Part shown: one piece after another, positions 11,478 to 32,021 of the stretch
Layout of the letters: the number at the start of each line of letters is the position of its first letter
Numbering within the stretch: position 1 is the first letter of the stretch
NCBI GenBank assembly: GCA_028289345.1
Contig: JANQQL010000047.1
Coordinates: 57,454-121,453 of the forward strand
Direction of reading: 5' to 3'
Length of the DNA: 64,000 bases
DNA from: Planctomycetota bacterium
GTDB taxonomy: Bacteria > Planctomycetota > B15-G4 > SIAN01
Translations under genes and position numbers: made by a program
The notes under the pieces: model-generated
What the model was told of the DNA's origin: nothing
What the model saw: the letters and a program-made list of their open reading frames with translations, nothing else
The model's database searches: none

Positions 11478-13124
11478 ATGACAACACGCAAGCCGAGAGC
11501 ATCCATCCCGACCAACGAACTGGAGAAAGCCGCCTGGCCATCTCTCAGCCCGGATTTGGTCGAGCAGATTGCGCAAGCCGGCATCCGGCTGGACACGAAA
11601 CGCGGTGAGGTTCTGTTCGACGTTGGCCAGGAGCGGTACGACTTCTACTACGTCGAGCGGGGCGTCCTTGAAGCCATTGACCGTTCCAACGACCATGTCG
11701 TTGTTCAAGTGAAAGAAGGAAACTTCGTCGGTGAGTTGGGAATGCTCATGGGACAACGGGCATTCCTCGCCGTGGTCGTTGCCGAGGCGGGCCGTGTCAT
11801 CCGTCTCCGGCAAGGCGATCTCATGCAGATGATGCATGCCGTGCCAGAACTCGCCGACACGATCGTGACTGCCTATGCGGCCCGGCGCCGACTGTTGGTG
11901 AACTGGGGGGAAGGGGGGCTCATCATCATCGGCTCGGAGGGCGACAGCAAAGCGCTGCGCCTTCGCGAGTTCGCAAGTCGAAGCCGGCTCCCCTATCGCT
12001 GGGTGCCGCGGAGTGACACGGCGGCCATGAACGAGGTTTCCAAGCTCTGCGAGGTTCCTGCAACAGGCACCGTTGTCGTCACCGGCCGTTCTCAAGTTCT
12101 TCCTGAGCCGACGCCGAAAGCACTGGCTTGCGTCATCGGAATGGATCTGGCTGCCGACAACACCTCCCTCTTCGACGTGATCGTCATCGGAGCCGGCCCC
12201 GGAGGGCTAGCCGCCGCGGTTTATGCCTCCTCGGAAGGGCTCGACGTCCTTGTCGTTGAAGACACGGCGATCGGCGGACAAGCCGGCACTTCTTCCAGAA
12301 TCGAAAACTACCTCGGGTTCCCTGCGGGAATCTCCGGAGCGGAACTCGCTTTCCGCAGTAGCGTCCAGGCCATCAAGTTTGGAGCGCGGATTGCTGCTCC
12401 GCGGCGAGCAACCCGGCTCACACGGGAAAATGACCTCTTCTGTGTGACTCTGGATGACGGAGATACGGTCCGAGGTCGAACCGTGGTGCTCGCAAACGGC
12501 GTCCAGTACCGCCGGCTGCCGCTCGCGAGGCTTGAAGAACTGGAAGGTCAGGGAGTGTATTACGCCGCCACCGATCTCGAGGCCCGCTTCTGCCGAGACA
12601 CAGAGGTGGTGATCGTTGGTGGGGGAAACTCGGCCGGCCAAGCCGCCATGTTCCTTTCCCGTTTCGCGTCAAAGACCCACGTCGTTGTTCGCGGGGAGGG
12701 CCTCGCGGTCACGATGTCCGCCTACCTGTCCGACCGAGTCGAGCCAGACCAACGCATTCAGCTTTGGACTCGCACCAGCGTGTCGGCGCTTGTGGGCGAG
12801 AGTCATCTGGAGCAAGTCGTTCTGAGAAACAACGACACCGGGGAGGAGTCCACCATCCGGTCGAAAGCTCTCTTCATCATGATTGGAGCAGCGCCAAACA
12901 CCGACTGGCTCGACGGTCAGGTAGCCTTGGATGAGAAAGGGTTCGTTCGGACGGGTCGCGATGTCGGACCAGAGTTCGACGGGTTTGCCACGTCTCTGCC
13001 TGGCATCTACGCGGTTGGCGATATCCGCTCGGGATCAGTGAAGAGAGTCGCTTCGGCCGTCGGCGAAGGCTCTGTAGTGATCGCTGCCGTGCACGAGTAT
13101 CTCAGCGCGCACACAGAACCCTGA
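11478..13124 (+). CDS. cyclic nucleotide-binding domain protein fused to thioredoxin-reductase-like FAD/NAD(P)-binding oxidoreductase (CxxC absent)
   Basis: A cNMP-binding motif (VKEGNFVGELGMLMGQRAF) is followed by a TrxR-like fold (DVIVIGAGPGGLAAAVYA ... VVIVGGGNSAGQAA ... GIYAVGDI). The position of the TrxR CAxC is occupied by AATD. Confidence 0.8.
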   Translation: MTTRKPRASIPTNELEKAAWPSLSPDLVEQIAQAGIRLDTKRGEVLFDVGQERYDFYYVERGVLEAIDRSNDHVVVQVKEGNFVGELGMLMGQRAFLAVVVAEAGRVIRLRQGDLMQMMHAVPELADTIVTAYAARRRLLVNWGEGGLIIIGSEGDSKALRLREFASRSRLPYRWVPRSDTAAMNEVSKLCEVPATGTVVVTGRSQVLPEPTPKALACVIGMDLAADNTSLFDVIVIGAGPGGLAAAVYASSEGLDVLVVEDTAIGGQAGTSSRIENYLGFPAGISGAELAFRSSVQAIKFGARIAAPRRATRLTRENDLFCVTLDDGDTVRGRTVVLANGVQYRRLPLARLEELEGQGVYYAATDLEARFCRDTEVVIVGGGNSAGQAAMFLSRFASKTHVVVRGEGLAVTMSAYLSDRVEPDQRIQLWTRTSVSALVGESHLEQVVLRNNDTGEESTIRSKALFIMIGAAPNTDWLDGQVALDEKGFVRTGRDVGPEFDGFATSLPGIYAVGDIRSGSVKRVASAVGEGSVVIAAVHEYLSAHTEP

Positions 13125-13557: not shown

Positions 13558-15042
13558 TTGAACACTGATCCAAGCGCGCGGGACCGGGCAAGTGTTCTTG
13601 CGAAGCTGACGCCAGCAATCTGGTTCGGCCTACTGTCCGGGTGCGGCCTCGTGGGGCCCGACTACACCCCCCCACCGGCCGACGCACCGGATTCCTATCT
13701 GGCGGACCGGCATCGAGGTCTGGTCGACGGAGCGACGGAACTCTCCGAATGGTGGAAGAACCTCGGCGATCCGACGCTCGACTCGTTGATCCAAAGATCT
13801 TTGCAAAACAACCTCGATCTGCGCGAGGCTCTGGCTCGGATCCGCGAAGCACGGGCGCGACGCGTGATCACCGGAACACAGCTCCTGCCAACCATCGATG
13901 CGAGCGGTTCGTTCTCGCGTGACCAGCGCAGCGACGAGATTGCCAACGGGGAGTTCGGCGTCCGGGTGGCAAACACTTACGCAGTCGGACTCGACGCCAG
14001 CTGGGAGGTGGATCTCTGGGGGCGCATCCGGCGGATCAACGAGGCGGCGTCCGCGGAGATCGGTTTGTCCGTCGAAGATGCCCGGGACGCATTGGTGTCC
14101 GTCCTTGCCGAGACGGCACTCAACTATGTCGAACTGCGCAACTCCCAAGAGTTGATACGGATTGCCCAGGCCAACATTGAACTACAAGAGCAGACGGTCG
14201 AACTCACTCGCAATCAGTTCAACGCCAACCTGGTCAGTCAGCTCGACGTCTCCCAGGCTCGCTCCAATCTGGAAAGCACCCGGGCATCCCTTCCTCCGTT
14301 GAAAGCCGACGCGCGTGCGGCACGAAACCGGCTGGCCGTGCTTCTGGGCATGTTCCCCGGTGCCCTGGAAGAAGAACTGCGCTCGCCCGCACCGATTCCT
14401 TCGCCAGCTTCTCAGGTCGCGGTCGGGATTCCCGCCGACATCATTCGCCAGCGGCCGGACATCCGACGCGCCGAACGAGAACTCGCTGCCGAGACCGCTC
14501 GCATCGGGATCGCCGAAGGAGACCTGTACCCCAGACTCTCTTTACTCGGGAGCATCGGACTGCAAGCGGAACACTCCTCGGACCTGCTCGACGGCCGTGC
14601 GGCCGCTTTCCGCATCGCTCCCTCCCTGACCTGGAACGTGTTCGACCGACGTCGCATCCGGGGCAACATCGAGGTTGCCGATGCACGGCAAGAGCAAGCA
14701 CTGCTTCGCTACGAACGCTCGGTGCTCCGAGCTCTTGAAGAAACCGAGAACGCGATGGTCCGATTCGCCTACGACCAAGATCGGCGCGACTCTCTCGAAA
14801 CAGCGGTGGCCCAAGCACGCCGCGCGGTGGAGCTTTCCGAGGACCAGTACCGGCAAGGGCTGGTCAGCTTTCAGTCAGTGCTGGACAGCCAGAGATTCCT
14901 GTTCGGAATCGAGAGTTCCCTGGCCTCCACTCGCGCTTCGATCACCACAGACCTCATCTCTTTGTACAAAGCCCTGGGCGGTGGCTGGGAATGCCGCGAC
15001 GTGGTACTCACTGAATCTCCAAAAGAAGGATCCGACCCGTGA
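13558..15042 (+). CDS. RND efflux outer-membrane factor lipoprotein, NodT family
   Basis: TTG start. Lipobox LLSGC. Typical OMF sequence (LIQRSLQNNLDLREALARIREARA ... two repeats). The stop overlaps the next gene. Confidence 0.85.
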   Translation: MNTDPSARDRASVLAKLTPAIWFGLLSGCGLVGPDYTPPPADAPDSYLADRHRGLVDGATELSEWWKNLGDPTLDSLIQRSLQNNLDLREALARIREARARRVITGTQLLPTIDASGSFSRDQRSDEIANGEFGVRVANTYAVGLDASWEVDLWGRIRRINEAASAEIGLSVEDARDALVSVLAETALNYVELRNSQELIRIAQANIELQEQTVELTRNQFNANLVSQLDVSQARSNLESTRASLPPLKADARAARNRLAVLLGMFPGALEEELRSPAPIPSPASQVAVGIPADIIRQRPDIRRAERELAAETARIGIAEGDLYPRLSLLGSIGLQAEHSSDLLDGRAAAFRIAPSLTWNVFDRRRIRGNIEVADARQEQALLRYERSVLRALEETENAMVRFAYDQDRRDSLETAVAQARRAVELSEDQYRQGLVSFQSVLDSQRFLFGIESSLASTRASITTDLISLYKALGGGWECRDVVLTESPKEGSDP

Positions 15043-16406
15043 ACGGCCGATGGCTCCGCGGCATTCCTGCAATCTGTGTCCTGACCGCTTGCGGTGAGCA
15101 GCCGGCCCCGCAAGGTCCTCCGCCACCTCCGCAAGTCACGGTGGCTCATCCGGTGGTCCGCGACATCGTGGAGTGGGACCGCTACACCGGGCGCCTCGCA
15201 GCCACCGAGTCGGTGGAGGTCCGAGCGAGAGTGTCCGGCTACCTGCAGTCCATCCACTTCCAAGAAGGGCAATTGGTGGAAAAGGGAGACCTGCTCGCGG
15301 TGATCGACCGACGTCCTTACGAGGCCGAGCTGCACCGGGCCAAAGCGCTCCGCGAAGAGGCGGGAGCGGGGATGGAACGAGCCCAAGCACTCCTTGCCCA
15401 AGCCGAGGCCTCGTTGACCCAGGCGGAGTCTGCACGCAAACTCGCAAAGATCCGCCTCGACAACGCGCTTCTCGCCGTGGAGACCAACTCCATCGCCCAA
15501 GAACAGGTCGACGTCCGGCGCAGTGAGTTCGCCCAAGCCGAAGCCTCCGTCGGCAAGGCCCAGGCCTCGATCGCCTCAGCGAATGCCGAGATCGCCACGG
15601 CCAACGCCGCCATCCACACCGCGGAAGCCGAGGTCGAACGAGCCAACTTGGATCTTCGCTACACGCGCATCGAGGCCGCGATCTCGGGACGCATCAGTGA
15701 CCGGCTCGTGACCAAGGGGAACCTCATCCAGGGCGGAAGCTTGGGTGCCACGTTGCTGACCACAATCGTGTCTCTGGATCCGATGCACGTCTACTTCGAT
15801 GCAAACGAGCAAGAGTTCTTGAAGTATCTGCGGCTCTCGACGTCGGGAGAACGGCCGAGTTCTCGCGAGTACAAGAATCCGGTGTACTTGGCGTTGATCG
15901 ATGAAGAAGGCTACCCCCATCAAGGACACATTGACTTCGTCGACAACAGAATCGACACCAACACCGGGACGATTCGCGGCCGAGCCATCTTTCGCAACGG
16001 GGACTTGACCCTCACTCCGGGGTTATTCGCCACCGTGAGAATCCCCGGCAGCGCCCGCTACGACGCGATCATGGTCCCCGACGCGGCGATCGGCTCCAAT
16101 CAGTCCCAGCGTTTCGTGATGATGGTCGATGACACCAACACCGTCAGTCCCCGGGCGGTCACGCCTGGTCCCCTGGTCGATGGTTTGCGTGTCATTCGCG
16201 AAGGCCTGGATGGATCCGAGCGCATCGTCATTGGCGGGCTGCAACGTGCTCGGCCCGGCAGTGTGGTCACTCCCGTTGACGGGACGATCGAAGTCGATGA
16301 ACTCGACGATCACCTCCCGAATGACTACCAGCCCCTTCCAGAAGATGAGTGGATCACCGTCGACTCGGATCCCTTGCCCGAAGACGAAACGGGGAACGAT
16401 CGATGA
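15039..16406 (+). CDS. RND efflux periplasmic adaptor (membrane fusion protein, HlyD family)
   Basis: GTG start overlaps the upstream stop (GTGA). Lipobox LTAC. Typical MFP coiled-coil, then a beta-barrel region. Confidence 0.85.
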   Translation: MNGRWLRGIPAICVLTACGEQPAPQGPPPPPQVTVAHPVVRDIVEWDRYTGRLAATESVEVRARVSGYLQSIHFQEGQLVEKGDLLAVIDRRPYEAELHRAKALREEAGAGMERAQALLAQAEASLTQAESARKLAKIRLDNALLAVETNSIAQEQVDVRRSEFAQAEASVGKAQASIASANAEIATANAAIHTAEAEVERANLDLRYTRIEAAISGRISDRLVTKGNLIQGGSLGATLLTTIVSLDPMHVYFDANEQEFLKYLRLSTSGERPSSREYKNPVYLALIDEEGYPHQGHIDFVDNRIDTNTGTIRGRAIFRNGDLTLTPGLFATVRIPGSARYDAIMVPDAAIGSNQSQRFVMMVDDTNTVSPRAVTPGPLVDGLRVIREGLDGSERIVIGGLQRARPGSVVTPVDGTIEVDELDDHLPNDYQPLPEDEWITVDSDPLPEDETGNDR

Positions 16407-19400
16407 ACATGCCGCAGTTCTTTATCGGGAGGCCGCGTTTCGCGGTCGTCCTGTCACTGGTCGTCCTGCTAATCGGCGGTATCTCCTACTTCCAGCTGCC
16501 GATTTCTCAGTATCCAGAAGTGGCCCCCCCCACGGTCGTGGTCACCGCCAGCTACCCGGGAGCGACCCCGGAAACCATCGCCGAGACCGTCGCCACCCCG
16601 CTGGAACAGGAGATCAACGGGGTCGAGGACATGCTGTACCTGGAATCCCAGTCCACGGTCGATGGCCGCATGACCCTGACCGTGACCTTCAAGCTCGGCA
16701 CGGACATCGACAAGGCCCAAGTCCTGGTCCAGAATCGGGTCTCCGTAGCCGAAGCAAGACTCCCGCCCGAGGTACGGCAGATCGGGGTGACCACCCGCAA
16801 GAGTTCCCCCGACCTCCTGATGGTGGTTCACATGCTGTCTCCCGACGACAGTCTGAGCCAGCTGTTCATCGGCAACTACGTCTTCCTCCAAGTTCGGGAC
16901 GTTCTCGCTCGCCTGGACGGGGTTGGAGACGTGCAAGTCTTCGGCGGCAGTCAGTACAGCATGCGAGTCTGGCTCGACATCGAACGACTCGCGTCGTTAG
17001 AGCTCACACCGGGTGACGTGATCGGGGCTCTTCGCGAGCAGAACGTCCAGGTGGCCTCAGGAGCGATTGGACAGGAACCGATGGGCCGACCCGGCGCATT
17101 CGAGATCACCGTATCCAGTCAGGGCCGGCTGCGCGAAGCGTCCGAGTTCGAGGACATTATTCTCAAATCGGGAACGGGCGGGCGCCTGGTTCGGTTGAGA
17201 GATGTGGCGCGCATCGAACTCGGCGCCCAAGACTACGCGGTACGCAGCTATCTCGACGGGAGCAATGCCGTGGCACTGGTCGTGTTCCAGCGACCGGGAT
17301 CCAATGCCATTGACACCGCGCGCAGCGTCAATGTCGCCATGGACGAACTCGCTCAAACCTTCCCCGCCGGGCTCGAGCATCGGGTGGTCTACAACCCGAC
17401 CGAGTTCGTGGAAGCCTCGATCGATGAAGTGTTCAACACCTTGCTGATCTCCGCGCTGTTGGTCGTGTTGACGGTGTTCGTGTTTCTCCAAAACTGGCGC
17501 ACGACGATCATTCCGGTCGTGGCGATCCCCATCTCCCTGATCGGCACGTTCGCGGTCATGCAGGCACTCGGAGTGACCTTGAACAGTCTCTCCCTGTTCG
17601 GCTTGGTCCTTGCGATCGGCATCGTTGTCGACGATGCCATCGTCGTGGTCGAAAACGTCGAACGTCTCATTGGAGGCGGTCTCGGCCCACGAGAAGCGGC
17701 CCGCCAGGCGATGAAGGAAGTGGGTTCTGCGCTCGTCGCAACGACGCTGGTACTCATCGCAGTGTTCGTGCCCACCGCCTTCATCGCTGGCCTCAGCGGA
17801 CAGTTCTATCGCCAGTTCGCACTCACCATTGCCTCGGCAACTGCGATCTCAACCTTCGTGTCTCTGACTTTGAGCCCGGCCCTCGCAGCAATCTTGTTGC
17901 GCCCTAAGGAGAAGGCACGCGGCCTACGCCGGCTCTTTGATCTGGCCTTTGGGTGGTTCTTCTGGATTTTCAACAAGGTGTTCGACGTGGCCAGCCGTCT
18001 GTATGCCCGACTCGTCGCCGGGGCGCTTCGGGCCAGCCCTCTGGTCTTGCTGATCTTCGTGGCCCTTCTCGGTGCGACGTACTTTGCCTTCCGCATAGTC
18101 CCCACCGGGTTCATTCCCGCTCAGGATCAGGGCTACCTGATCGTCGCGATCCAGCTGCCGGACGGCGCGTCGCTCGAACGCACCGACCAGGTGGTCCACC
18201 AGGTCGCAAACCTCGCCCTCGAGACTCCCGGCATCGCGAACGCGGTCGCCTTCACGGGATTCTCCGGAGCGACCCGGGTGAACAGCTCCAACGCGGCGGC
18301 AATCTTCACCGCCCTGGAAGATGCCTCCGATCGAGCAGAGAAAGGACTGACTGCAGACACCGTCCTGTCCGATCTGAGAGCTCGCATCTCGACCGTCGAA
18401 GAGGCTCTCATCTTTGCGCTCGCTCCACCGCCAATCCCCGGAATTGGCACCGGCGGTGGTTTCAAAATGCAAATTCAGGACCGTGCCGGCGTGGGCTTTC
18501 AGGCCCTGCACGACGCGGCCTGGGCCGTTGCTGGGCAGGCCAACCAGAAGGAAGGCCTGGTGCAGGTCTTCTCGAACTTCTCTCTCGGGGCGCCCCAGCT
18601 CTTCGCTGACATCAACCGCACCAAGGCCCGCATGCTGGACGTGCCGATCGGGGCAATCAACGAAGCCCTCCAGGTCTACCTTGGATCGGTGTTCGTCAAC
18701 GACTTCAACTACCTGGGCCGCGTGTACCGCGTGACCGCTCAGGCCGAATCCGAGTTTCGCGATGAAGAAGACGATGTCCTGAAGCTCCGTACCCGAAGCT
18801 CGAACGGTGCCATTGTGCCGCTCGGTTCCTTGGTCACCCTGCAACGGAAGACCGCACCGTCACGAGTGGTTCGCTACAACCTCTATCCCGCGGCTGACGT
18901 GAACGGAGACACGCTTCCTGGATTCTCCACCGGTCGGAGCCTGGAGATCATGGAAGAGCTTGCCGAGAACACCCTTCCCGCCACCATGGGCTTCCAGTGG
19001 ACGGACCTCGCCTTCCAGGCTCGCACGGTAGGGAACACGGCTCCTTTCATCTTCGCCCTGTGCGTCCTCCTGGCCTTCCTTTCTCTGGCAGCCCAGTACG
19101 AGAGCTGGCTGCTCCCCCTCGCGGTAATCTTGATCGTCCCTCTCACCTTGTTGTTCGGCCTCGGGGGAATCGCGCTGCGAGGCATGGAGAATGACATCCT
19201 CGTCCAGATCGGATTCGTGCTACTCGTCGGGCTCGCGTGCAAGAACGCCATTTTGATCGTCGAGTTCGCCAAGGAGTTGGAAGACAGCGGCATGAGCCCA
19301 TTCGACGCGGCGGTCGAAGCCTGCCGCCTGCGCCTTCGCCCGGTTTTGATGACCGCCCTCTCGTTCATTCTGGGCGTCGTCCCACTCATGTTTGCCACCA

Positions 19401-19564
19401 GCGCGGGCTCGGAGATGCGACGGTCACTCGGCACGACTGTGTTCAGCGGCATGGTCGGGGTCACGTTCTGCGGACTGATCATGACCCCGGTGTTCTACGT
19501 GACGTTGCGCAAGCTCGCTTTGAGACGAAGACGTCGAGAAGAGACACCGGCGATCTCGCCTTGA
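16403..19564 (+). CDS. RND efflux permease, HAE1/AcrB family
   Basis: ATG 16403 (MNMPQFFIGRPRFAVVLSLVVLLIGG) overlaps the MFP stop. 1054 aa with the canonical AcrB architecture. Confidence 0.9.
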   Translation: MNMPQFFIGRPRFAVVLSLVVLLIGGISYFQLPISQYPEVAPPTVVVTASYPGATPETIAETVATPLEQEINGVEDMLYLESQSTVDGRMTLTVTFKLGTDIDKAQVLVQNRVSVAEARLPPEVRQIGVTTRKSSPDLLMVVHMLSPDDSLSQLFIGNYVFLQVRDVLARLDGVGDVQVFGGSQYSMRVWLDIERLASLELTPGDVIGALREQNVQVASGAIGQEPMGRPGAFEITVSSQGRLREASEFEDIILKSGTGGRLVRLRDVARIELGAQDYAVRSYLDGSNAVALVVFQRPGSNAIDTARSVNVAMDELAQTFPAGLEHRVVYNPTEFVEASIDEVFNTLLISALLVVLTVFVFLQNWRTTIIPVVAIPISLIGTFAVMQALGVTLNSLSLFGLVLAIGIVVDDAIVVVENVERLIGGGLGPREAARQAMKEVGSALVATTLVLIAVFVPTAFIAGLSGQFYRQFALTIASATAISTFVSLTLSPALAAILLRPKEKARGLRRLFDLAFGWFFWIFNKVFDVASRLYARLVAGALRASPLVLLIFVALLGATYFAFRIVPTGFIPAQDQGYLIVAIQLPDGASLERTDQVVHQVANLALETPGIANAVAFTGFSGATRVNSSNAAAIFTALEDASDRAEKGLTADTVLSDLRARISTVEEALIFALAPPPIPGIGTGGGFKMQIQDRAGVGFQALHDAAWAVAGQANQKEGLVQVFSNFSLGAPQLFADINRTKARMLDVPIGAINEALQVYLGSVFVNDFNYLGRVYRVTAQAESEFRDEEDDVLKLRTRSSNGAIVPLGSLVTLQRKTAPSRVVRYNLYPAADVNGDTLPGFSTGRSLEIMEELAENTLPATMGFQWTDLAFQARTVGNTAPFIFALCVLLAFLSLAAQYESWLLPLAVILIVPLTLLFGLGGIALRGMENDILVQIGFVLLVGLACKNAILIVEFAKELEDSGMSPFDAAVEACRLRLRPVLMTALSFILGVVPLMFATSAGSEMRRSLGTTVFSGMVGVTFCGLIMTPVFYVTLRKLALRRRRREETPAISP

Positions 19565-21942: not shown

Positions 21943-24741
21943 TCACGATCCGACGGCCCGCTCGATTCGCTCGACCAGCTGCTGCAGGCGTGGGTCCCCC
22001 CCGAGCGCTTCCTGCAAGGGGCCACCGCGCTGCCACTGAAGGCTGTCGAGGGTCCAGCCAGGATCCTCGTCCGCCATCTCCTCGAGGATCATCAAGGCCT
22101 GGTCCAGGTCTCCGGCCACCGCGTGAGCCATCGACTCACAGACTTGCAGTCGGCCACGAAGCCTTTGTTTCAGGAACTCGGGAACGGCAAGCTCCTCCAG
22201 CATGCCGAGCCCGCGGTCCAGAAACTCCTCGGTGGGCGCCAGATCTCCGAGAGCGGCGGCTGACTCACAAGCAATCAGGCAATCGCTGAACTCTTCGAAA
22301 CTGCCCGGTTCCGCGGAATCGAGCGAGCGCTCCGACAAATCCCTCAGGGATTCCCAGTCTCCGAGGACTCGAGTCACCGCACGATCCAACTCGGTCACTG
22401 TTCGCGGGGCTTCGCCGAGCGCTTCTTGACGCAGTCGTTCTCCGACTTTCTCGTAGGTGTTGCCCGGCGAGGAATAGCTGTCCGCAAAGCTGGTCACTTG
22501 CCCCGACTCGCTTCGAGTGAAGAACACCCATCGTCCTTGTTCGCGATTGAGGAAGAGATCCTGGTCGACCGCTTCGAAGGAACGGTCCCAGATCTCAATC
22601 TGACCCGGCTCCACCGAAGTGACCTCGGTGAATCTCGAAGCCTCCCAACCCGCCCCCGGGGGACAGCCGTGACAGAAGAGGTTGCCGACATAGGTCCCGG
22701 TGTAGGCGGCAGTGTCGACCTCCAGACGCGGCCGGTCCACATCGATCGATGTCCTGCCCTCGGGAAACCAGTGGTTCATCAACGCACGAGTGACCGCCCA
22801 CGCAAGCCGCGGTCGAGGTCCCGTTTCTCCATCTCGGTTCATGAGCACCACGGCGCCCTTGCCTTGACCGGGCAGAAAGAAGAAGTCGCCCGAGTATCCC
22901 TGCATGGTTCCTCCATGCTGAAGGACTCGCTGACCGTTGTGCATTTCTTCCCAGAAGCCGAAAGAGAAGCCGGGGATTTCTGGATGAGCACGGAACTGTG
23001 AGGTGCGAAGCTGATTCGCCATCTCGCTCGAAAACAGTCGAGCGGTTCCACAGGACCCATCGCCGCTCAAAGCAACCAAAAGACGGGCCATGTCCGACGC
23101 CGTGGAGTCGATCGACGAGGCCGGCAAAGAAGCGTAGTACTCATATCCTTGTCGAACGTGGCGTCCCGCAGTGAAGCCGTAGCCGGTGGCGAGCTCGTCC
23201 CGCCGATCGTCGGGCACTTCCACGAATGAGCGGGACATGCCAAGAGGCTCGAAGACCAGCCGAGTCATCGCCACTCCGTAGTCCACATCCAGGCGCGCTT
23301 CCAGCAAGTACCCGAGCAGAGAAATCCCGTAGGTGTCGTAGCAACTTTCCCGTCCGGGAGGACGAACACGGCGCAGGTCCCGTTCCAGAAAATCTCCGAG
23401 CGAGACCCGCTGGGCCGGGTCATAGAACAACCGGTTGGTCCCCACCTGGTCGAATCCTGCCGTGTGGGTCATCAAGTGATCGATGGTGACCGGCGAGTCG
23501 AATCTTGTGTCGACATGGAACTGCTCGAGGTAGGTGTTCACATCGGCTTCCCGAGACAGGAGGCCTTGATCCACCGCCGCCAACACACCGATCGCGCTGA
23601 CCGCCTTCGAGATCGACCCAATGCGAAACAAGGTCTCTTCCGCATCCACCGGAGACTCGGTCTCCAGGTCCGCCACGCCATATCCTTGCAGGTACGCAAT
23701 TCGGCCTTCGTCCACCACGGCCACGGCAGACCCAGGAAGGGAATCATCCAGCATCTGTTGAGGAATGATCGACTCGAGTAGCTCTCGATACTCTTCGCCG
23801 TCCGGCGTCACCGGCTTGACGGTCTCCACTGCGGCTTCCTCGCTCGCCGCGCGCTTCATGAAGCCCAGCCGAGCGGGCGCCGCAAGCAACACGGGCGCTG
23901 GAGAACTGTCCGCGGAACTGGTGGCGACCGTCGGGCTTTTCGGTGGAGTGCGCGGTGGCAAGGCTCTGCGCACCACGAGGGGGGAAGCCTCCGAGGCAGA
24001 GCCGACGGCAGCGGACGGATTCGAAGCGAGGACGGAAGGAGCTTCGTCGAGGGACGGCAAGACCGCAGAGTCCGCCTCCTTCCTTCCGACCATGATGAAG
24101 AACCCGAGAGCGGCCACCGCGATCGCTCCTGCCAGAGCTTGGAAGGACCAATCTCGGCCCGCCACTCGTTCGGAAGACTTCGCAAGGGGAAGCGTTCCGG
24201 GGACACAGAACACTGCCAATCCCCGGCGAATCGCAGATGGCTCATGCTTGCGTTGAAGCTCCTCGCGCAGCATCTGCAGTCCACGACGCAACCGGGTTTT
24301 GACCGTTTGCAACGGGACCTCCAGACGCTGGGCCATCTGAGGAGGAGTCAGCCCTTCGTAGTAACGCAGGTAAACGCTCGTTCGATAGGGCTCCCGCAAT
24401 TCGCGCAGGGACTTCACGAGGTCTTGAACCAGCTCCATGCGAGCTTGGATCTCGGCCGGGTCGGTCGTCGACGAATCTCGAAGTCGCTGATCGTGGTAGG
24501 CCCGCTCCCGAAGGAGCCGCCGCTCGTCTCCCAGCTGCATGCTGCGAATCGCATTGCGAGCGACTTGCTTCAGCCAGGCCCCAAGGTTTCCTTGGGCCGG
24601 GGGGCTCCCCAACGCAGTGACCCAGGTCTGCTGCACCACGTCGTCGATCGGTGCTTCTCGAGAAATCAGGTCTCGGGCGATGCGACGCAGGCGATCCCGA
24701 TGGCGCAGCAGGTCCTCGGCAGTCAAGGCTTGTTCACTCAT
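21943..24741 (-). CDS. ECF-type sigma-70 domain fused to a TM helix, a periplasmic beta-lactamase/serine-hydrolase-like domain and a C-terminal helical domain
   Basis: ATG 24739-24741 (MSEQALTAEDLL). Sigma region 2 is DDVVQQTWVTAL and region 4 is YLRYYEGLTPPQMAQRLEVPLQTVKTRLRRGL. A single TM helix (AIAVAALGFFIMVG) is followed by a Pro/Ser linker. SxxK motif (GSISKAVSAIG) and HGG motif are present. Confidence 0.75.
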   Translation of the reverse strand: MSEQALTAEDLLRHRDRLRRIARDLISREAPIDDVVQQTWVTALGSPPAQGNLGAWLKQVARNAIRSMQLGDERRLLRERAYHDQRLRDSSTTDPAEIQARMELVQDLVKSLRELREPYRTSVYLRYYEGLTPPQMAQRLEVPLQTVKTRLRRGLQMLREELQRKHEPSAIRRGLAVFCVPGTLPLAKSSERVAGRDWSFQALAGAIAVAALGFFIMVGRKEADSAVLPSLDEAPSVLASNPSAAVGSASEASPLVVRRALPPRTPPKSPTVATSSADSSPAPVLLAAPARLGFMKRAASEEAAVETVKPVTPDGEEYRELLESIIPQQMLDDSLPGSAVAVVDEGRIAYLQGYGVADLETESPVDAEETLFRIGSISKAVSAIGVLAAVDQGLLSREADVNTYLEQFHVDTRFDSPVTIDHLMTHTAGFDQVGTNRLFYDPAQRVSLGDFLERDLRRVRPPGRESCYDTYGISLLGYLLEARLDVDYGVAMTRLVFEPLGMSRSFVEVPDDRRDELATGYGFTAGRHVRQGYEYYASLPASSIDSTASDMARLLVALSGDGSCGTARLFSSEMANQLRTSQFRAHPEIPGFSFGFWEEMHNGQRVLQHGGTMQGYSGDFFFLPGQGKGAVVLMNRDGETGPRPRLAWAVTRALMNHWFPEGRTSIDVDRPRLEVDTAAYTGTYVGNLFCHGCPPGAGWEASRFTEVTSVEPGQIEIWDRSFEAVDQDLFLNREQGRWVFFTRSESGQVTSFADSYSSPGNTYEKVGERLRQEALGEAPRTVTELDRAVTRVLGDWESLRDLSERSLDSAEPGSFEEFSDCLIACESAAALGDLAPTEEFLDRGLGMLEELAVPEFLKQRLRGRLQVCESMAHAVAGDLDQALMILEEMADEDPGWTLDSLQWQRGGPLQEALGGDPRLQQLVERIERAVGS

Positions 24742-24902
24742 CCCGCTCTCACTTGGTTCCGGCAAAGGGTCGGGTGGAAAACACCCAACGGAAGCAGCGA
24801 TGGGCACCGACCACCCGTCTCCCCCCAGCAGGCCGGGTCCCGGTCGCTCCGCCTCATGAACCTCGCCGGGCGGGATTGGAGTTCAGGAATTCGAAGACTT
24901 TC

Positions 24903-25440: not shown

Positions 25441-26379
25441 TCAGCGGCTCAATAGATCCTGAAGAGCCGAAGACAACTCGGGGAACTGAAACTCGAACCC
25501 GGCCTCGGGAAGGCGGCGGGACACGCAGTAGCGGCCGTACAAGACAAGCTCGGGATCGGTCCGCAAGAACAACGGAGCGGCGATTCGCACCATCCAGGAG
25601 GCCGCCGGAAGTCCCACGGGCTGATGAACCACGCGGCGCAGCTTCGCCATGAATTCGCGGTGGGACACCGGTTTGGGAGCGGTGACCAAGTAGGCACCGT
25701 TCATGCGCTCGTCTTCGATCGCCTGGACGAAGAACTGATTCATGTCGGCTTCGTGAAGCCAGCTGATCCCCTGTCGACCGCTTCCGACTCGGCCCCCCAA
25801 TCCCCAACGCGCCAGCCGGGCCAGCTTTCCAAGAGCGCCCCCGCTTCTTCCGAGAACGAAACTGGTTCGGGCAATGACAGTGCGCACGCCATCGGGAACC
25901 GAATCGTGCATCGCTTGCTCCCACGCCTGACCGACTTGCGGCGCGAGACCGTATCCGAACGCGGAATCTTCCTCGCAAACCGCGTCTTCTCCCGGATCTC
26001 CGTAGTTATGCGCCGTGGACATCTGCACCCAGACAGGCGGAGGTTGGGCCGCGTTCTGCAATGCCTGCCCGAGAACTCGGGTCGACTCAACTCGGGAACG
26101 GAGGATCTGGTCGCAATGATCAGGGGTTTTGATGCAATCGACCGAACGGCCGGCCAGATTGACCACGGCTCGAGCGCCCTCGAGATGCTTCGCCCATTCC
26201 CCGAGTCGCCTCCCGTCCCAGGGCGACCACGTCCACGGTCCTTTCCGGGACGGCTCCTGCCGCGAGATGATCACGACCGAACGGCCGCGCTCCCCAAGAT
26301 GGACCGCGAGGTTCTGACCAAGAAAGCCGGATCCACCCGTGATCACGACTTTGTCGTCCGTTGGGGTGCCGTGGTTCAT
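25441..26379 (-). CDS. TIGR01777-family NAD-dependent epimerase/dehydratase (YfcH-like)
   Basis: Rossmann motif [14 protein letters not shown]. Typical YfcH/SDR39U1 length and sequence. ATG at 26377-26379. Confidence 0.8.
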
Positions 26380-26644
26380 GGCTCTCACTTTCGTGTTCGC
26401 GCACCACCGGTGGGGTCAGCCGGAAGACAGATTCTGCCGGCAATCGACCGAACTCGACAGTCTCTCCAAAAATGGGGCTGCAAAGCCTGTTCCCAACCCC
26501 CTCAACTCCCACGCTCCTTGGGGCCGAGCCGCACACCCTGTTTTTCGCAGAAACCATGCAGAATCTTCGGGCTTGGCGGGCTCTCCCGCATGGAGTCCGA
26601 CGCGGACTCGAGGACCATTTCTTTCACCGACCGGAGAGTCAGCA

Positions 26645-27796
26645 ATGTCAGGGCTTTGCTTGGGCATCTTCCTTTCGAGCGTGCTTGTCGCAGTGACACA
26701 AGCCCCCCCTTCCGAGGGCGGAGTCCTTCTCGCCGTCCATGAAGAAGCTTCTCTCGAGCTTCAAGCATTCTGGGATCCCTGCAAAGAGTCCAAATACGGC
26801 CTCTTCGAGCGCACCAAAGCAATCGCCTCGATTCAACCGGTTCACGAGACGAACTTGTACTTGGCTTCTTCGTTCCAAGCATTTCTTCCCGAGCACCGGG
26901 TCGAGGTCGGCCAAGTTTGGAAAGTGAAAGAGGAGGCCGTGTTGCCGTTCTTGCGACAACTGCATCCGGGTGCGACTGCCCATCTCCATCACGGCAGCCC
27001 GGGCAGCACCGGCGCTCGAGCCTGCTTGCGAGCGATCAACGCCACCAAAGCCGAGGTTCTGATTCGCGCCCATGCGGAGTTTCGGATCGAAGACGAGATC
27101 TTCTTCACCCCGGCGCAGTTCGAAGGACGTCTGGTCCTCGATCAGGAAACGGGCATGGTCGATTCGTTTCGACTCTTCTTGCCCAGTCGAAACACCAACG
27201 TCGACATCAACGTGGGTTCCGTGGATTCTTCGGGGCCCTTCCCTGAGTCTCGTTCCTACGAGGCAGACATTGGATGGGTGCCGCGGCTGGAAGTGACCAG
27301 CGGTCCGAGTCTTCCCCCACACTGGGTCGACTCCATCTCGCTCGAGAAAGCGAGGAGCCGTCTCCGGGCCCCGTTCTATGCATTCGCCAAGATCGACTGG
27401 ATGCCGTTCGAAAGCGCGGTCCAAGAATCCATCGACCTCGGCCTACCGCTCCACTTGATCATCCTGTTCGGCTGCCTCGACGACGAATCCTGCTGAGGCA
27501 GCGGCAAGACACTGAGGGCGGGTCCGCTCTCGAACCCCAGGATCATCAAGACACTGAATGAAGACTTCATCAACACATGGATCCTCGCCAAGGACTTGGA
27601 GCACCTCGCGGAACACTCTCCCGACGAAGCCATTCGTGAACGGGCCGCCCATTGCGGCAAGCGCTACAAGTACCCGGTCGACAGTCAGATTCTGGCTCCG
27701 AACGGCGATCTCCTGAGCCAGGTAGGAGCGAACGAGATCATGGGACTGGATCTGGGGAATCGCTATTGGCGGTTCCTGGAGAGTGCCTACGAGTGA
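26645..27796 (+). CDS. predicted selenoprotein: secreted protein whose C-terminal thioredoxin-like fold spans an in-frame TGA (Sec) at 27494-27496 (motif C-U-G-S)
   Basis: ATG 26645 with a signal peptide (MSGLCLGIFLSSVLVAVTQA). The ORF nominally ends at TGA 27494, but the same frame continues for 99 codons with no start and no stop. It encodes Trx-fold-like sequence (…IDW…LHLIILFGCLDDESC-TGA-GSGKTLRAG…NEDFINTWILAKD…YKYPVDSQILAPNGDLL…). It ends at a TGA that overlaps the ATG of the next gene (TGATG at 27794-27798). Confidence 0.5.
27514..27531 (+). other. candidate SECIS-like hairpin (gagggcg-GGUC-cgctctc, including one G.U pair) 17 nt downstream of the in-frame TGA
   Basis: A 7-8 bp stem with a G/U-containing apical loop lies about 20-27 nt 3' of UGA 27494-27496. 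Confidence 0.3.
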
Positions 27797-30735
27797 TGGT
27801 CGATTCCAACAACCCGTGCGACGAGCTGTTTCGACATGCGGGATTCGTGAAGCACCTGGCGCGAGACCTGCGCAGCGACCCAAACTCTTCGGACGACCTG
27901 GTGCAGGACACGTGGGTGGTTGCCCTGCAGTCCCCGCCGAGTTCCACCACCGGCGTCAAAGGATGGCTCAAGCAGGTGTGCCGTCGCTTGGCGATTCGGG
28001 AAGGGCGAACCCAGGAACGACGGTTGCGCCGGGAGCAAGCCACGGCTTCTCACGAACTCTCCCGAACAACGGTCGAAGAATGCGCCTGGCGCGAAACTCT
28101 CCGTCAAGTGACGGATTGTGTGCTGGCCCTCTCGGAGCCCAACCGTCAGGTCATTCTGTTGCACTACTACGAAGGCCTTTCGCCCGAAGCGATTGCCAAT
28201 CGACTGGAGGTATCTCGTGCCACGATCTACTCGCGGTTGAGTCGCGGCCTCGAACAACTTCGTCACGCGCTCGATCAAAAGAACCGGGGAAACCGGAGCG
28301 CGTGGGTGCAAGCGCTCGCTCCCCTCACTCTGGATCTCCCCACTCGGAGAAGATCCACGGACAGCGATTCGACGACGCTGTCCATTGGGAGAGTGTGGGT
28401 CGGGGTCGCGCTCTCGGGACTACTTGTCGCAACCGGAGTTTGGTGGTGGCGAGACGGCAAACTCGGAGACACGGGTGACGGGCCACCATCGCCCTCGTCG
28501 TTCATCAGTGAGACCCGAACCAACACCCAAAGCGTCGAGAAAAGCGACCAAAGGCTCGAGGCCCCCGTTCGAGAACTCGCTTCCTCCAAAGCGGCGACCG
28601 GGGACTCGCGACAAGTCGAATCCCCTCCTGTTCCTCGAGAAGACGAGGCTTCCGCGCGCACGGTGGTGCGAATGGTGTGGCAAGACGACGGCACTCCCCT
28701 TGGTGATCGCTGGGTCCAGATCGTTCCCCGGAAACCCAGCGCCGCGGAGTTTCCGGCTTTGAAGACCGACGACCAGGGAGAGCTTCCTCTTCCTGACGGG
28801 GGAGCCGACATTCTTGCTTTGGTCGATCCAGTCGCTCACCAAACTCTGAAGCTGCCCGAGCACCCCGCCGCCTTCGACACCATCCGTTGGGAAATCCCGG
28901 CGGGCTTGGACGTGTCAGGAACCGTCGCCGACATCCGGGGACATCCCGTCGGCAAGGCAAGCATTTGGATTGGTCATCCGGAACGGACGTTGCCGCCGGT
29001 TTTGGTCGATGTTTCGCACGCCCAGGGAGAGTTTCATTTGCGAGGAGTGGCTCCGGAGTCTCGCTTGTGCGCGATGGCGTCGGGCTATCAGGCGTCTCGC
29101 TTTCAAAGTGTCGAGGGAATTCCAGGATCTTCCGTCCGCGCCACGGTGATCCTCGCCCCGGGTTGCGGAGTGCTGACCGGCCAGGTGCTCGATGAATCGG
29201 GACGCCCGGTCCCCGGGGCCAGGATTCGGATGAAAGGGCGACATGAAGCCGACCTTTATCGGTTCGATGGAGTCGCACTCCACGATCTACCTCCCTGGGA
29301 AACACGAGCCGACTCAAAGGGGCGCTATCGCTTTGACTCCCTGGTCCCGGGCCCAGTGCAGCTCGTGGTGACCGCCCCCGGCTATGCCCCGACGGCCATG
29401 CAGCGGCAGCTTCCGCGTCAACAGTCGGAACAGGATCTCGTTTTGACCAAAGGAGTCTGCATCTCCGGACAAGTCCAAGACCTGTCCGGTGCCCCCGTGG
29501 CGGACGCGGTGATCGAGATGCGAGACACCAAGTCTCCCTGGCAGCAAATGGTTCGCGTCGATGCCGCGGGTACGTACGAGCTTCTGCACTTGCCGAACAG
29601 CGCGCAGCTTGTTGTTCGCAGCCCCTCGGCCGGAGTGGCACGGCGACTGATTGCGGAAGGATCCGGGCGGGATCGAACTTGGAATCCGGTTCTCCATCCA
29701 GGCAGAACAGTGCATGGCCGGCTGCAAGACTCTTCGGGTCAACCTCTGGGTGGTCGGACGATTCACGCCGTGGGCAACGTGCCGAGGGGGGACCAGCGGT
29801 CGCTGTGGAGCAGTCAGGCTCGGACCGATGCAACCGGTGAGTTTCGCCTTCTCGGGTGTCCCGATGAGCCGCTCCAGCTGGAGATCCTACGTCACGTTCA
29901 AATCGGCGACATCGAACTGGCCGTTCGAATCGAACCAAACGATCCCATGCCATTGACCTTGGTCCTGGAGCCGACCCAAACACCGAGTGCGTGGATTCGC
30001 GGCTTTCTGGTCGATCCCGCGGGGCAACCGATCGTTGGCAGAGTCGAGGGGTTCTCCCACGGCCTCACCGCGGGAAGCACACTCTTCCAGGAAGCCACCA
30101 CGGATTCTCGCGGTCACTTCCTGCTCGGTCCCCTCGCTCCCGGGCTCTGGCAACTCCGCGCCCGCCGCCACCATGGACCTCTCGTCTCCCTGTCCCGGAT
30201 CAACGTCGGATCCGGAGAAACGGTCGATCTGGGCAAGTCGCTCGTTGAGTTCTCGGGATGGCTGGAGATCCGAACAGAACGGCCCAGGGAGCCGGTTTTC
30301 GAACGGTTTCAAGTCATCGGCAATGGCAACCTGCAAAACCATGCCATCTCACAGGACCGAATCGCCCTTTCTCCCGGCGAGTACACGGTCACCTTGTGGG
30401 GACGCAACACCGCGCTCGTCACCCATGAAGTCACGATCGCACCGCAACAGCTGACCACCCTCGACGTCCGGGGAACTGCGGGCACGCTGTGTCGCTTTCG
30501 GTTTCAGATTGCTGAAGGGAGGATCTCCCACACAATCGGATTCTCTCTCTTCTCCGGGGACCGACTACTTGGTCACTGGTGGCACTCGGTCCAGGAATCC
30601 AAGACCCGCGAGCAACGCTTGTCACCGGGCTCCTACGACCTCGAAATCCATGGAACCGGCCGCCCCACCTTTCGCCGGAGGGTGGAAGTGCGTCCGGGAC
30701 AGCCAGAGCTCACCGAACAGCTCGTCATCGAGTGA
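27796..30735 (+). CDS. ECF-type sigma-70 domain fused to a TM helix and about five periplasmic carboxypeptidase-regulatory-like (CarboxypepD_reg/prealbumin-fold) repeats
   Basis: ATG 27796 (MVDSNNPCDELFRH) aligns with the start of its paralog 21943..24741. Sigma region 4 is LLHYYEGLSPEAIANRLEVSRATIYSRLSRGL. TM helix VWVGVALSGLLVATGVWWW. Repeated GxVxDxxGxPVxGAxI motifs follow. Confidence 0.75.
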   Translation: MVDSNNPCDELFRHAGFVKHLARDLRSDPNSSDDLVQDTWVVALQSPPSSTTGVKGWLKQVCRRLAIREGRTQERRLRREQATASHELSRTTVEECAWRETLRQVTDCVLALSEPNRQVILLHYYEGLSPEAIANRLEVSRATIYSRLSRGLEQLRHALDQKNRGNRSAWVQALAPLTLDLPTRRRSTDSDSTTLSIGRVWVGVALSGLLVATGVWWWRDGKLGDTGDGPPSPSSFISETRTNTQSVEKSDQRLEAPVRELASSKAATGDSRQVESPPVPREDEASARTVVRMVWQDDGTPLGDRWVQIVPRKPSAAEFPALKTDDQGELPLPDGGADILALVDPVAHQTLKLPEHPAAFDTIRWEIPAGLDVSGTVADIRGHPVGKASIWIGHPERTLPPVLVDVSHAQGEFHLRGVAPESRLCAMASGYQASRFQSVEGIPGSSVRATVILAPGCGVLTGQVLDESGRPVPGARIRMKGRHEADLYRFDGVALHDLPPWETRADSKGRYRFDSLVPGPVQLVVTAPGYAPTAMQRQLPRQQSEQDLVLTKGVCISGQVQDLSGAPVADAVIEMRDTKSPWQQMVRVDAAGTYELLHLPNSAQLVVRSPSAGVARRLIAEGSGRDRTWNPVLHPGRTVHGRLQDSSGQPLGGRTIHAVGNVPRGDQRSLWSSQARTDATGEFRLLGCPDEPLQLEILRHVQIGDIELAVRIEPNDPMPLTLVLEPTQTPSAWIRGFLVDPAGQPIVGRVEGFSHGLTAGSTLFQEATTDSRGHFLLGPLAPGLWQLRARRHHGPLVSLSRINVGSGETVDLGKSLVEFSGWLEIRTERPREPVFERFQVIGNGNLQNHAISQDRIALSPGEYTVTLWGRNTALVTHEVTIAPQQLTTLDVRGTAGTLCRFRFQIAEGRISHTIGFSLFSGDRLLGHWWHSVQESKTREQRLSPGSYDLEIHGTGRPTFRRRVEVRPGQPELTEQLVIE

Positions 30736-31214: not shown

Positions 31215-32021
31215 TCAAGTCCAGCCAATCATGACCAGGAACACAAGTATGTCCGCGACCACATGGGCGAGGAACGGCGCCAGGATTCCTCGCGCGGCAT
31301 GAGCGAGCCCGCCGAGAGCGAAACCGTAGAGAAAGGTCAGACTGGCTCCCTCGAGTCCATCTGGCACCGATGGCGGTCGATAGTGCAGCGCACCAAAGGC
31401 AAGGGCTTGCACAAGAATCGCCACCCCGGGCTTGGAGAAACTAGCCTGAAGAGCGCGAAGTGAGAGGCCGCGGAAAACGAGTTCCTCCATCGCCGCGTTG
31501 GTGATGGCAAACATCACCCCCGCAAACACCGCCTCGGTCATTGTCAGACCAGCGAATCCATGGCTCCCTGGCTCCGCGTTGGAAAGCGTTGCCCAGAGGA
31601 GGAACACAATCGCGGAAAGAGTGGTGATGGCAACGGTCAGTAGCTTCACACCCGCCGCCATCGACCCCAGCGATGCCCATGACGACACGGGCGCGGCACC
31701 GCGAACCGTACCACAGTAGAAGACAGCACCCGCCAATGGGATCAACCAATGGAGTGGCCACGAATCCAGCCGCGGAGTCACGATCTTGAGTGCCATGAGC
31801 AAAGCAACGAACAGGCACCAAGGCGAAACCAGGGAGTGCCGACGAATCAGTGCCGTTCCGGCAACTGCCACGGCCATCCCGAACAGCCACGGTTCGGCCC
31901 ATGGCGGCGCAAACCCAAAAGCAGTCAAGAAGATCGTTGAAGCCGGAGCCAGGAGACGCCTACTCAAAACTCGCCAGCTCCTGTTCGATGCCCTTCCATC
32001 CCGCCTCAATCTCCTCCTCAT
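31215..32021 (-). CDS. CPBP-family intramembrane metalloprotease (CAAX protease/Abi-like)
   Basis: Multi-TM protein with the EExxFRG motif (AMEELVFRGL) and a downstream conserved His (FGALHY). The start may be further downstream, since the 5' end overlaps the upstream gene by 62 nt. Confidence 0.7.
   Translation of the reverse strand: MRRRLRRDGRASNRSWRVLSRRLLAPASTIFLTAFGFAPPWAEPWLFGMAVAVAGTALIRRHSLVSPWCLFVALLMALKIVTPRLDSWPLHWLIPLAGAVFYCGTVRGAAPVSSWASLGSMAAGVKLLTVAITTLSAIVFLLWATLSNAEPGSHGFAGLTMTEAVFAGVMFAITNAAMEELVFRGLSLRALQASFSKPGVAILVQALAFGALHYRPPSVPDGLEGASLTFLYGFALGGLAHAARGILAPFLAHVVADILVFLVMIGWT

Follow-up and report, generated by a model that had tools for sequence, protein, structure and literature searches.

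In a 64,000-nt stretch of DNA from a Planctomycetota bacterium (contig JANQQL010000047.1; hereafter the window, in whose positions all feature coordinates are given), a gene read through an in-frame UGA overlaps by one base the start of a gene for an extracytoplasmic function (ECF) sigma factor that carries its own membrane anchor and periplasmic repeats. Comparison with homologous genes shows the upstream gene to encode what by its sequence is a real selenoprotein, with selenocysteine (Sec) predicted at UGA 27494 and aided by a downstream selenocysteine insertion sequence (SECIS) hairpin. Judged by alignment and motif, its product is a bacterial homologue of selenoprotein N (SELENON, also SEPN1; here SelenoN), an identity that the original prediction, made from this DNA alone, did not recognize. 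The locus is best explained as a two-gene envelope module, consisting of a secreted SelenoN homologue and a membrane-tethered ECF sigma factor, and the pairing of the two families is facultative but non-random.

Identity of the selenoprotein and decoding of its UGA codon

The upstream open reading frame (ORF) extends from stop to stop over 26339..27496 and ends in ...LFGCLDDESC followed by TGA (27494-27496). Past this codon the frame stays open (GSGKTLRAGPLS... / GSGKTLRAGPLSNPRIIKTLNEDFINTW...) up to a second TGA at 27794-27796. The gene most likely starts at ATG 26645 (MSGLCLGIF..., MSGLCLGIFLSSVLVAVTQAPP...), as does the public gene call P0001, which ends at the first TGA. When 5.8 billion proteins were searched with SelenoN, 155 relatives were returned, most of them ~280 amino acids (aa) long, terminating exactly at ...DDESC and covering only 65-74% of the query. 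This pattern shows that gene callers cut such relatives short at one and the same codon. In a few relatives that run to full length, the Sec site is a Cys (...ESC-C-GSGK...; SCCGSGK), and Cys stands at this position in P0035, P0053, P0054, P0180, and P0303. We then fetched 141 loci from genomes and metagenomes; a scan of metagenome contigs with a single protein gave no matches, and an alignment-based scan succeeded. In these loci, TGA occupied this exact codon in 159 of 159 homologous genes, with the conserved C-terminal domain in frame after it. The in-frame conservation over 159 genes and the existence of Cys homologues contradict a true stop that splits two genes, a pseudogene, and a read-through that is a chance ORF, and all three readings were rejected. 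Thus the read-through selenoprotein with a redox center, as originally predicted, proved to be real. A further full-length homologue, P0062, has Gly at the Sec position (ESC-G-VNGK), i.e., neither Cys nor Sec.

The first base of the candidate SECIS hairpin lies 19 nt after the U of the UGA in the minimum free energy (MFE) fold. Since the single-sequence fold after the UGA was not significant by itself (z = -0.55), the case for the hairpin is a comparative one. Among 140 distinct homologous sequences, 89% of the cells in the 7-bp core were paired, a level reached in 0 of 500 column shuffles, and pairing was lower at all of the control positions to which the core was slid. The closing pair showed compensatory GC/AU changes (GC 90, AU 38, GU 11). 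The hairpin shares bases with the codons of a very conserved peptide, LRAGPLS, so that RNA and protein constraints coincide at this place. One SelenoN subclade carries another hairpin (CCCUC-CGUGCG-AGGG) here, with the peptide LRARVL replacing LRAGPLS (loci L003, L007, L014, L017, L021, L042, L044, L076, L094, L103, L108, L116, L117, L122, and L129). RNAalifold run on all 140 sequences returned no structure, probably as a result of mixing the two hairpin types. In its position and in having G/U in the apical loop, the hairpin agrees with the bacterial SECIS described for fdhF of E. coli.

The identity of the protein was assigned by alignment. BLASTP against a provisional copy of the human SELENON sequence, with U changed to C, gave 31% identity over 355 aa (E = 4e-49; human residues 200-546), and this alignment placed Sec on Sec inside DD[EQ]SCUGSG[KR]TLR. 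JGI labels the homologue P0014 "selenoprotein N", and the S-C-U-G motif is the hallmark of human SelN (PMC12839072). No model in Pfam or NCBIfam recognizes the SelenoN-like protein. The Cys homologue P0035 was modeled with high confidence by AlphaFold2 (pLDDT 92, pTM 0.88). The model has a strand at 270-275, SCCG at ~283-286, and a helix at 286-293, which puts SCC(U)G at the N-terminal end of the first helix. Foldseek matched the C-terminal half of this model to the thioredoxin folds of DsbH, AGR2/3, and ERp18; the beta-rich N-terminal domain had no convincing match in the Protein Data Bank (PDB), and selenoprotein N had no sequence match among the chains of the PDB copy searched. The N-terminus of the window protein is a hydrophobic, signal-like segment of 22 aa, and the protein has no Pfam match to an EF-hand. 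Sequence and predicted fold together show a Ser-Cys-Sec-Gly redox center on a thioredoxin fold, in a protein that is predicted to be secreted.

The SelenoN family is small: out of 1.84 billion representatives, it accounts for 518 clusters at the 50% identity level. It is overwhelmingly Sec-containing and is hosted by Planctomycetota and Candidatus Poribacteria. We found no paper on bacterial SelenoN or on its pairing with a sigma factor, in agreement with the original impression that the arrangement had not been described, although coverage of the literature was incomplete and this is absence of evidence only. A 2026 catalogue of >110 prokaryotic selenoprotein families does not mention bacterial SelenoN. 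Six Poribacteria loci (L038, L046, L048, L068, L069, and L073) hold tandem arrays of 3-5 SelenoN paralogues, in which every copy has a TGA and a hairpin of its own, and in L068 and L069 a sigma-transmembrane (TM)-X gene comes next after the array. SelenoN domains also occur with other N-terminal additions, such as LRR repeats (P0321), a TPR-containing protein of 1101 aa (P0312), and a ~240-aa extension without an assigned family (P0310 and P0314).

The tethered sigma factor and its junction with SelenoN

The product of the downstream gene, 979 aa in length, matched Pfam Sigma70_r2, Sigma70_r4_2, and five stretches of CarboxypepD_reg. In NCBIfam, it scored 66.7 bits against the TIGR02937 (sigma70-ECF) cut-off of 42.9, while reaching the curated cut-off of no ECF subfamily. 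A hydropathy scan found exactly one TM-like segment, followed by 760 aa with the CarboxypepD_reg repeats. These results confirm the earlier description of an ECF sigma domain joined through a TM helix to carboxypeptidase-regulatory-like repeats, and the domain order shows the gene to encode a one-component ECF sigma factor, predicted to span the membrane and to carry a periplasmic stalk. The stretch from region 4 to the TM helix is only ~34 aa long, too short to hold an anti-sigma domain, and Pfam gave no match to an anti-sigma or zinc-finger domain (ZAS/FecR-like). Given the missing anti-sigma domain and the TM-containing C-terminal extension, as in other such sigma factors, the protein is probably held inactive at the membrane and freed by regulated proteolysis. 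Among those analogues, IutY of Pseudomonas putida (ECF243) has a TM extension and is activated by regulated proteolysis, and proteolytic activation has been proposed for SCO4117 of Streptomyces coelicolor (ECF52; PMC8999054).

The two genes lie on the same strand, and the sigma ATG (27796-27798) uses the A of the SelenoN stop (TGA 27794-27796). The public gene call P0121 (979 aa, 100% identical to the sigma product) has the same start. Therefore, both the in-frame TGA and the TGATG overlap on which the original prediction was built are real. Neither a sigma-70-type promoter nor an intrinsic terminator was found between the two genes in the window. Because the genes share a strand, overlap by one base, and have no promoter or terminator between them, they are very probably co-transcribed. 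An independent promoter or ribosome-binding site for the sigma gene had been named as the circumstance that would make the coupling incidental; such a promoter was not seen, and of a binding site there is a GGAG located 14 nt before the sigma ATG, without a strong, well-spaced Shine-Dalgarno sequence.

From this junction it had been concluded that expression of the sigma gene depends on ribosomes traversing the UGA and is possibly selenium-dependent. On such a scheme, synthesis of the sigma factor would need Sec decoding at UGA 27494, followed by termination and reinitiation at TGATG, and its level would track the supply of selenium. The one-base overlap, the placement of the UGA 300 nt upstream of the sigma start within the SelenoN cistron, and the poor Shine-Dalgarno context are all in its favor, and premature termination at the UGA could also cause polarity. 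However, no related locus has the overlap, the gaps elsewhere being ~220-320 nt (L083), ~650 nt (L095), and ~1.2-1.6 kb (L129), with no ORF in common between the gaps of the latter two. In addition, RNA around the sigma start was no more structured than its shuffles (z = +0.12), and the fusions of the two proteins considered below include Cys forms (P0180 and P0303), so a link exists that does not require selenium. Since the overlap is unique to the window, obligatory coupling, and hence selenium-dependent expression of the sigma factor, is not a conserved property. Selenium dependence is therefore the weakest part of the earlier interpretation, and we consider a selenium gate on the sigma factor improbable. 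Judged from its sequence, the junction may well allow translational coupling at TGATG in the window genome, and there, but only there, failed decoding 300 nt upstream could reduce sigma synthesis.

Table 1. Features of the SelenoN-sigma locus (window positions)
Feature	Position	Strand	Basis or remarks
GGAGAG Shine-Dalgarno-like sequence	26633..26638	+	7 nt before ATG 26645; direct sequence reading
SelenoN-like selenoprotein gene	26645..27796	+	383 codons including Sec; signal-like segment, beta-rich N-domain, C-terminal DsbH/AGR-type thioredoxin fold
Signal-peptide-like N-terminus (MSGLCLGIFLSSVLVAVTQA, then PP)	26645..26710	+	Kyte-Doolittle hydrophobic segment, aa 1-22; homologues alike
UGA, predicted selenocysteine codon in D-D-E-S-C-U-G-S-G-K	27494..27496	+	Codon 284; TGA in 159/159 homologous genes; Cys forms exist
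SECIS-type hairpin, stem UGAGGGCG / CGCUCUCG, apical loop GGUC	27513..27532	+	MFE fold and comparative analysis
TGATG stop/start overlap, one base	27794..27798	+	Sequence; context GAG TGA TGG
One-component ECF sigma factor, 979 aa: sigma2-sigma4, TM helix, CarboxypepD_reg array	27796..30735	+	Pfam, NCBIfam, hydropathy
ECF sigma core: region 2 (aa 13-75), region 4 (aa 103-155)	27832..28260	+	PF04542, PF08281; TIGR02937 above cut-off
Single TM helix, aa 194-215 (IGRVWVGVALSGLLVATGVWWW)	28375..28440	+	Hydropathy scan; sequence
Predicted extracytoplasmic part: Pro/Ser-rich linker, then transthyretin-like CarboxypepD_reg beta-sandwich repeats	28441..30732	+	PF13620, 5 stretches, E = 6.5e-51

Only two sigma genes were detected in the 64-kb window, with SelenoN between them. 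The other one (21946..24882, minus strand, 3 kb upstream) also encodes a one-component ECF sigma factor, with regions 2 and 4, one TM segment, and a Beta-lactamase/PBP-like domain (PF00144), and is separated from SelenoN by a DinB-family gene and a gene for an NAD-dependent epimerase. On the other side, a gene for an Rce1-like (CPBP) intramembrane protease (31215..32021, minus strand) converges on the 3' end of the sigma fusion; it is conceivable as a protease that cleaves the tether, and it was found in no related locus. Beyond it follow genes for an APH-family kinase, a DUF1772/anthrone-oxygenase-like protein, and a large subtilase. Farther upstream in the window are an RND efflux operon (13558..19564) and a gene (11298..13124) that joins a cyclic-nucleotide-binding domain to a thioredoxin-reductase-like pyridine nucleotide-disulfide oxidoreductase. 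A tRNA scan and an Rfam scan of the window were both empty.

Recurrence of the pair and the proposed role of SelenoN

To locate sigma genes around SelenoN, an ECF profile was built from homologues of the sigma fusion, all six-frame ORFs of the loci were scanned with it, and the genes were de-duplicated. Around the GC-rich (Planctomycetota-like) SelenoN loci the flanks were covered over ±8 kb, and the counts refer to those of these loci with enough flank. Of 24 such loci, 6 had an ECF sigma gene ≤2.5 kb downstream of SelenoN, and of 21 loci, 0 had one ≤2.5 kb upstream. With the window excluded, all five sigma genes found in the flanks (5/5) fell in the downstream 2.5-kb zone, which makes up 22.6% of the scanned sequence (binomial P = 5.8e-4). 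The six cases are of three kinds. A sigma-TM-CarboxypepD_reg protein is encoded downstream on the same strand in the window, L095, and L129; a PF07638-type ECF gene followed by a Ser/Thr kinase gene lies on the same strand in L083; and small, convergent ECF genes occur in L101 and L107. The sigma fusions of L095 and L129 are co-linear with that of the window (27-32% identity over ~240-650 aa), and so is the 27-32% identical homologue in L139. The SelenoN proteins of L095 and L129 are only 37-44% identical to that of the window, and the SelenoN partners in all three sigma-TM-CarboxypepD_reg loci are 35-44% identical to one another. In the SelenoN tree, the members associated with a sigma gene do not group together but are scattered, with a mutual identity of only 33-49%. 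Therefore, the linkage either is old and was lost many times or arose on several occasions. In a related locus, L001 (a Lake Baikal Planctomycetota metagenome-assembled genome), a CarboxypepD_reg protein, incomplete at the contig edge, is encoded ~1.7 kb upstream of SelenoN.

The two proteins were also found joined in one polypeptide. In the Poribacteria loci L124 and L132, a single frame runs from an ECF sigma core through a TM helix and a linker into an entire SelenoN domain, UGA included. These fusions (P0162-P0184; L124 6059-8128) form an orthologous group of ~23 clusters that are 83-99% identical, of which P0180 is a full-length, Cys-containing member. A second sigma-TM-SelenoN fusion is P0303, a Cys form of 668 aa with a GC-rich composition, which shares only 25% identity with the fusion from Poribacteria. 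The Poribacteria sigma-TM scaffold itself has >7000 matches, with ECF sigma, TM, and linker 65-70% identical (proteins P0162-P0281), and is fused to Sortilin/BNR, Kelch, LRR, peptidase M16, TPR, and SelenoN domains, i.e., to interchangeable extracytoplasmic domains. By domain comparison, this scaffold puts SelenoN in what may be called the "sensor" slot of such sigma factors.

Other thioredoxin folds recur in the same sigma family. P0122 (L139), the closest homologue of the window sigma fusion, is directly followed by a TlpA/AhpC-TSA-like gene with a signal peptide (L139 8124-9209), annotated as two ORFs, which has an in-frame TGA in FWGFW-U-GPC; by its sequence, it encodes a different periplasmic thioredoxin-fold selenoprotein. 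P0158 combines a sigma factor and CarboxypepD_reg repeats with a C-terminal, Cys-less TlpA-like domain, P0159 combines CarboxypepD_reg repeats with a WCGPC thioredoxin, and a Poribacteria sigma factor in L053 ends in a Cys-less redoxin-like domain. Thioredoxin folds that lack Cys would fit sensing or binding better than catalysis. Taken together with the SelenoN fusions, these cases point to a recurring functional tie between ECF sigma factors of this membrane-tethered kind and thioredoxin-fold modules on the extracytoplasmic side.

A partnership between SelenoN and the sigma factor is inferred from the recurrent neighborhood and the fusions, and a number of our results weigh against it. No sigma neighbor was found in 18 of the 24 GC-rich SelenoN loci and in nearly all Poribacteria loci, and SelenoN stood beside none of the six sigma-fusion homologues examined (0/6). 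Two of the six neighboring sigma genes are convergent, and one is of a different ECF type with a Ser/Thr kinase. Neighborhoods vary otherwise, all loci having been searched for other conserved neighbors (Rce1-like protease, DinB, epimerase, APH, or beta-lactamase domain) with none found, and a search of 11 regions upstream of SelenoN or sigma genes yielded no shared two-block ECF-type promoter, only GC-rich noise. Genes of the Sec machinery are not in the 64-kb window. No Cys is conserved in the periplasmic part among 13 sigma fusions. Finally, the SelenoN fusion is one of many scaffold fusions in Poribacteria and is less special for that reason. The original prediction had made its case depend on conservation of the pair, and the outcome is divided: the pair recurs as neighbors, as fusions, and by way of the analogous selenoprotein beside P0122, but it is missing from most SelenoN loci and from the reciprocal set.

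These absences could mean that adjacency is incidental, SelenoN and the sigma gene being unrelated neighbors in ECF-rich genomes and their overlap a product of ordinary operon compaction. That most members of either family lack the partner, that the overlap occurs only in the window, and that sigma-associated SelenoN genes are scattered in the tree would all be expected if so; moreover, 3 kb away the window organism has at least one more gene of the sigma-TM-X kind, and Poribacteria join their sigma scaffold to almost anything. However, chance adjacency accounts poorly for the positional enrichment of sigma genes just downstream of SelenoN, which persists when the discovery case is excluded, or for the presence of a rare sigma architecture beside three such divergent SelenoN proteins. 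It likewise accounts poorly for two very divergent sigma-SelenoN fusions and for the recurrence of thioredoxin-fold partners and fusions in the sigma family. We therefore regard incidental adjacency as unlikely.

If the two proteins do work together, SelenoN could act either before or after the sigma factor. We tentatively favor SelenoN as the extracytoplasmic redox-sensing (input) partner of the tethered sigma factor, while granting this role somewhat less than an even chance. It is favored because SelenoN takes the sensor position in the fusions and because related sigma factors carry catalytically dead thioredoxin folds. In this mechanism, SelenoN would be secreted after insertion of Sec at UGA 27494 with the help of the SECIS hairpin, and the sigma factor, tethered by its one TM helix, would be kept inactive at the membrane. 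The selenenylsulfide/selenol state of SelenoN would report periplasmic oxidative or thiol stress and would modulate the release or activity of the sigma factor, which would be set free by regulated proteolysis. The TGATG overlap would add translational coupling locally and would not belong to the conserved logic. Since no Cys is conserved in the stalk, a direct thiol-disulfide relay to it is unlikely, and any coupling would therefore operate via binding or a shared substrate. Of the redox-responsive envelope signaling unit proposed originally, the redox selenoprotein, the tethered sigma factor, and their recurrent association are borne out, while general conservation of the pair is not.

SelenoN could instead be an output of the sigma factor, an effector in its autoregulated operon that serves envelope thiol/selenol repair or redox buffering without sensing anything. 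It would then be induced on release of the tethered sigma factor, like the thiol-repair genes of other ECF regulons; SigR-TrxBA in Streptomyces and the ECF-MsrAB system of Neisseria are precedents for such a role. ECF sigma factors commonly adjoin their regulon genes (PMC7826278). The same-strand, overlapping pair with no terminator between its genes is consistent with this arrangement, as are an active site that is catalytically competent by sequence (SCU in nearly all members) and the catalytic TlpA-like selenoprotein adjoining the sigma homologue in L139. However, covalent attachment of SelenoN to a sigma factor outside the membrane, as in the fusions, would be odd for a mere effector, and the thioredoxin-like domains on related sigma factors lack Cys. 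In addition, the sigma gene usually comes first in ECF operons, and no ECF promoter was recognizable upstream of SelenoN. An output role is the main alternative to sensing, but a rather doubtful one.

Significance and relation to known systems

The arrangement is best read as known ECF redox signaling in a new form, and its interest is raised by the identity of SelenoN and by the sigma-SelenoN fusions. Selenoprotein N is a human disease protein whose molecular function is only partly understood. The compact bacterial family, with its 518 clusters and SCUG center, offers a simple model in which to study structure and genetics and to trap substrates, and the recurrent tie to membrane-tethered sigma factors provides a concrete, testable functional hypothesis for SelenoN. 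For bacterial signaling, a selenoprotein partner or domain would join the known inputs of one-component ECF sigma factors, and the locus points to a wider association of these sigma factors with periplasmic thioredoxin-fold proteins. For annotation, public gene calls systematically cut SelenoN genes short at the UGA. A bolder reading, which we think unlikely, is that SelenoN is a selenium-based sensor of tethered ECF sigma factors, in trans in the window and in cis in the fusions, and that this was the ancestral role of the family that contains SELENON, i.e., to sense redox next to a membrane and regulate a membrane protein. If true, it would define a new class of sigma-factor input, and the biochemistry of the human myopathy protein, long unclear, could be approached in bacteria as a tractable system.

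Eukaryotic SELENON/SEPN1 is a redox protein of the endoplasmic reticulum membrane that is mutated in SEPN1-related myopathies. Both domains of the bacterial protein are homologous to it, and the two share the redox motif D-D-x-S-C-U-G-S-G-[KR]-T-L-R unchanged, Sec falling on the same residue in the copy of the human sequence used. Both proteins have a thioredoxin-like fold and lie, in the bacterial case by prediction, on the non-cytoplasmic side of a membrane system. However, the cytosolic N-terminal tail, the TM anchor, and the EF-hand calcium sensor of animal SelN are missing from the bacterial protein, whose SECIS hairpin is within the ORF rather than in the 3' untranslated region and which adjoins or is fused to a sigma factor. 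Bacterial selenoprotein families of the thiol-disulfide isomerase/TlpA-like UxxC type have been catalogued (PMC13188914), and these share with SelenoN a secreted thioredoxin fold, an active-site Sec, and an in-ORF SECIS. SelenoN differs from them by its adjacent Cys-Sec pair (C-U) in place of UxxC, by a large extra N-terminal beta domain, and by a fold that is of the DsbH/AGR type and not of the TlpA type.

The sigma factor resembles IutY (ECF243) and SCO4117 (ECF52) in that one polypeptide unites a sigma2-sigma4 core with a TM helix and, beyond it, an extracytoplasmic domain, and in the lack of a separate anti-sigma gene. It differs from them in the absence of an anti-sigma/zinc-finger domain between region 4 and the TM helix, in its extracytoplasmic CarboxypepD_reg array, and in its phylum, and its proteolytic activation is proposed by analogy. 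SigR-RsrA (thiol stress, TrxBA regulon) and RpoE-ChrR are redox-linked ECF systems, and the present arrangement resembles them in tying an ECF sigma factor to proteins of the thioredoxin fold and to thiol redox chemistry. Sensing in those systems is cytoplasmic and uses a zinc-binding anti-sigma factor (ZAS anti-sigma factors are reviewed in PMC8999054), whereas the candidate redox element here would be extracytoplasmic and selenium-containing, either as a secreted protein of its own or as the C-terminal domain of the sigma factor itself.

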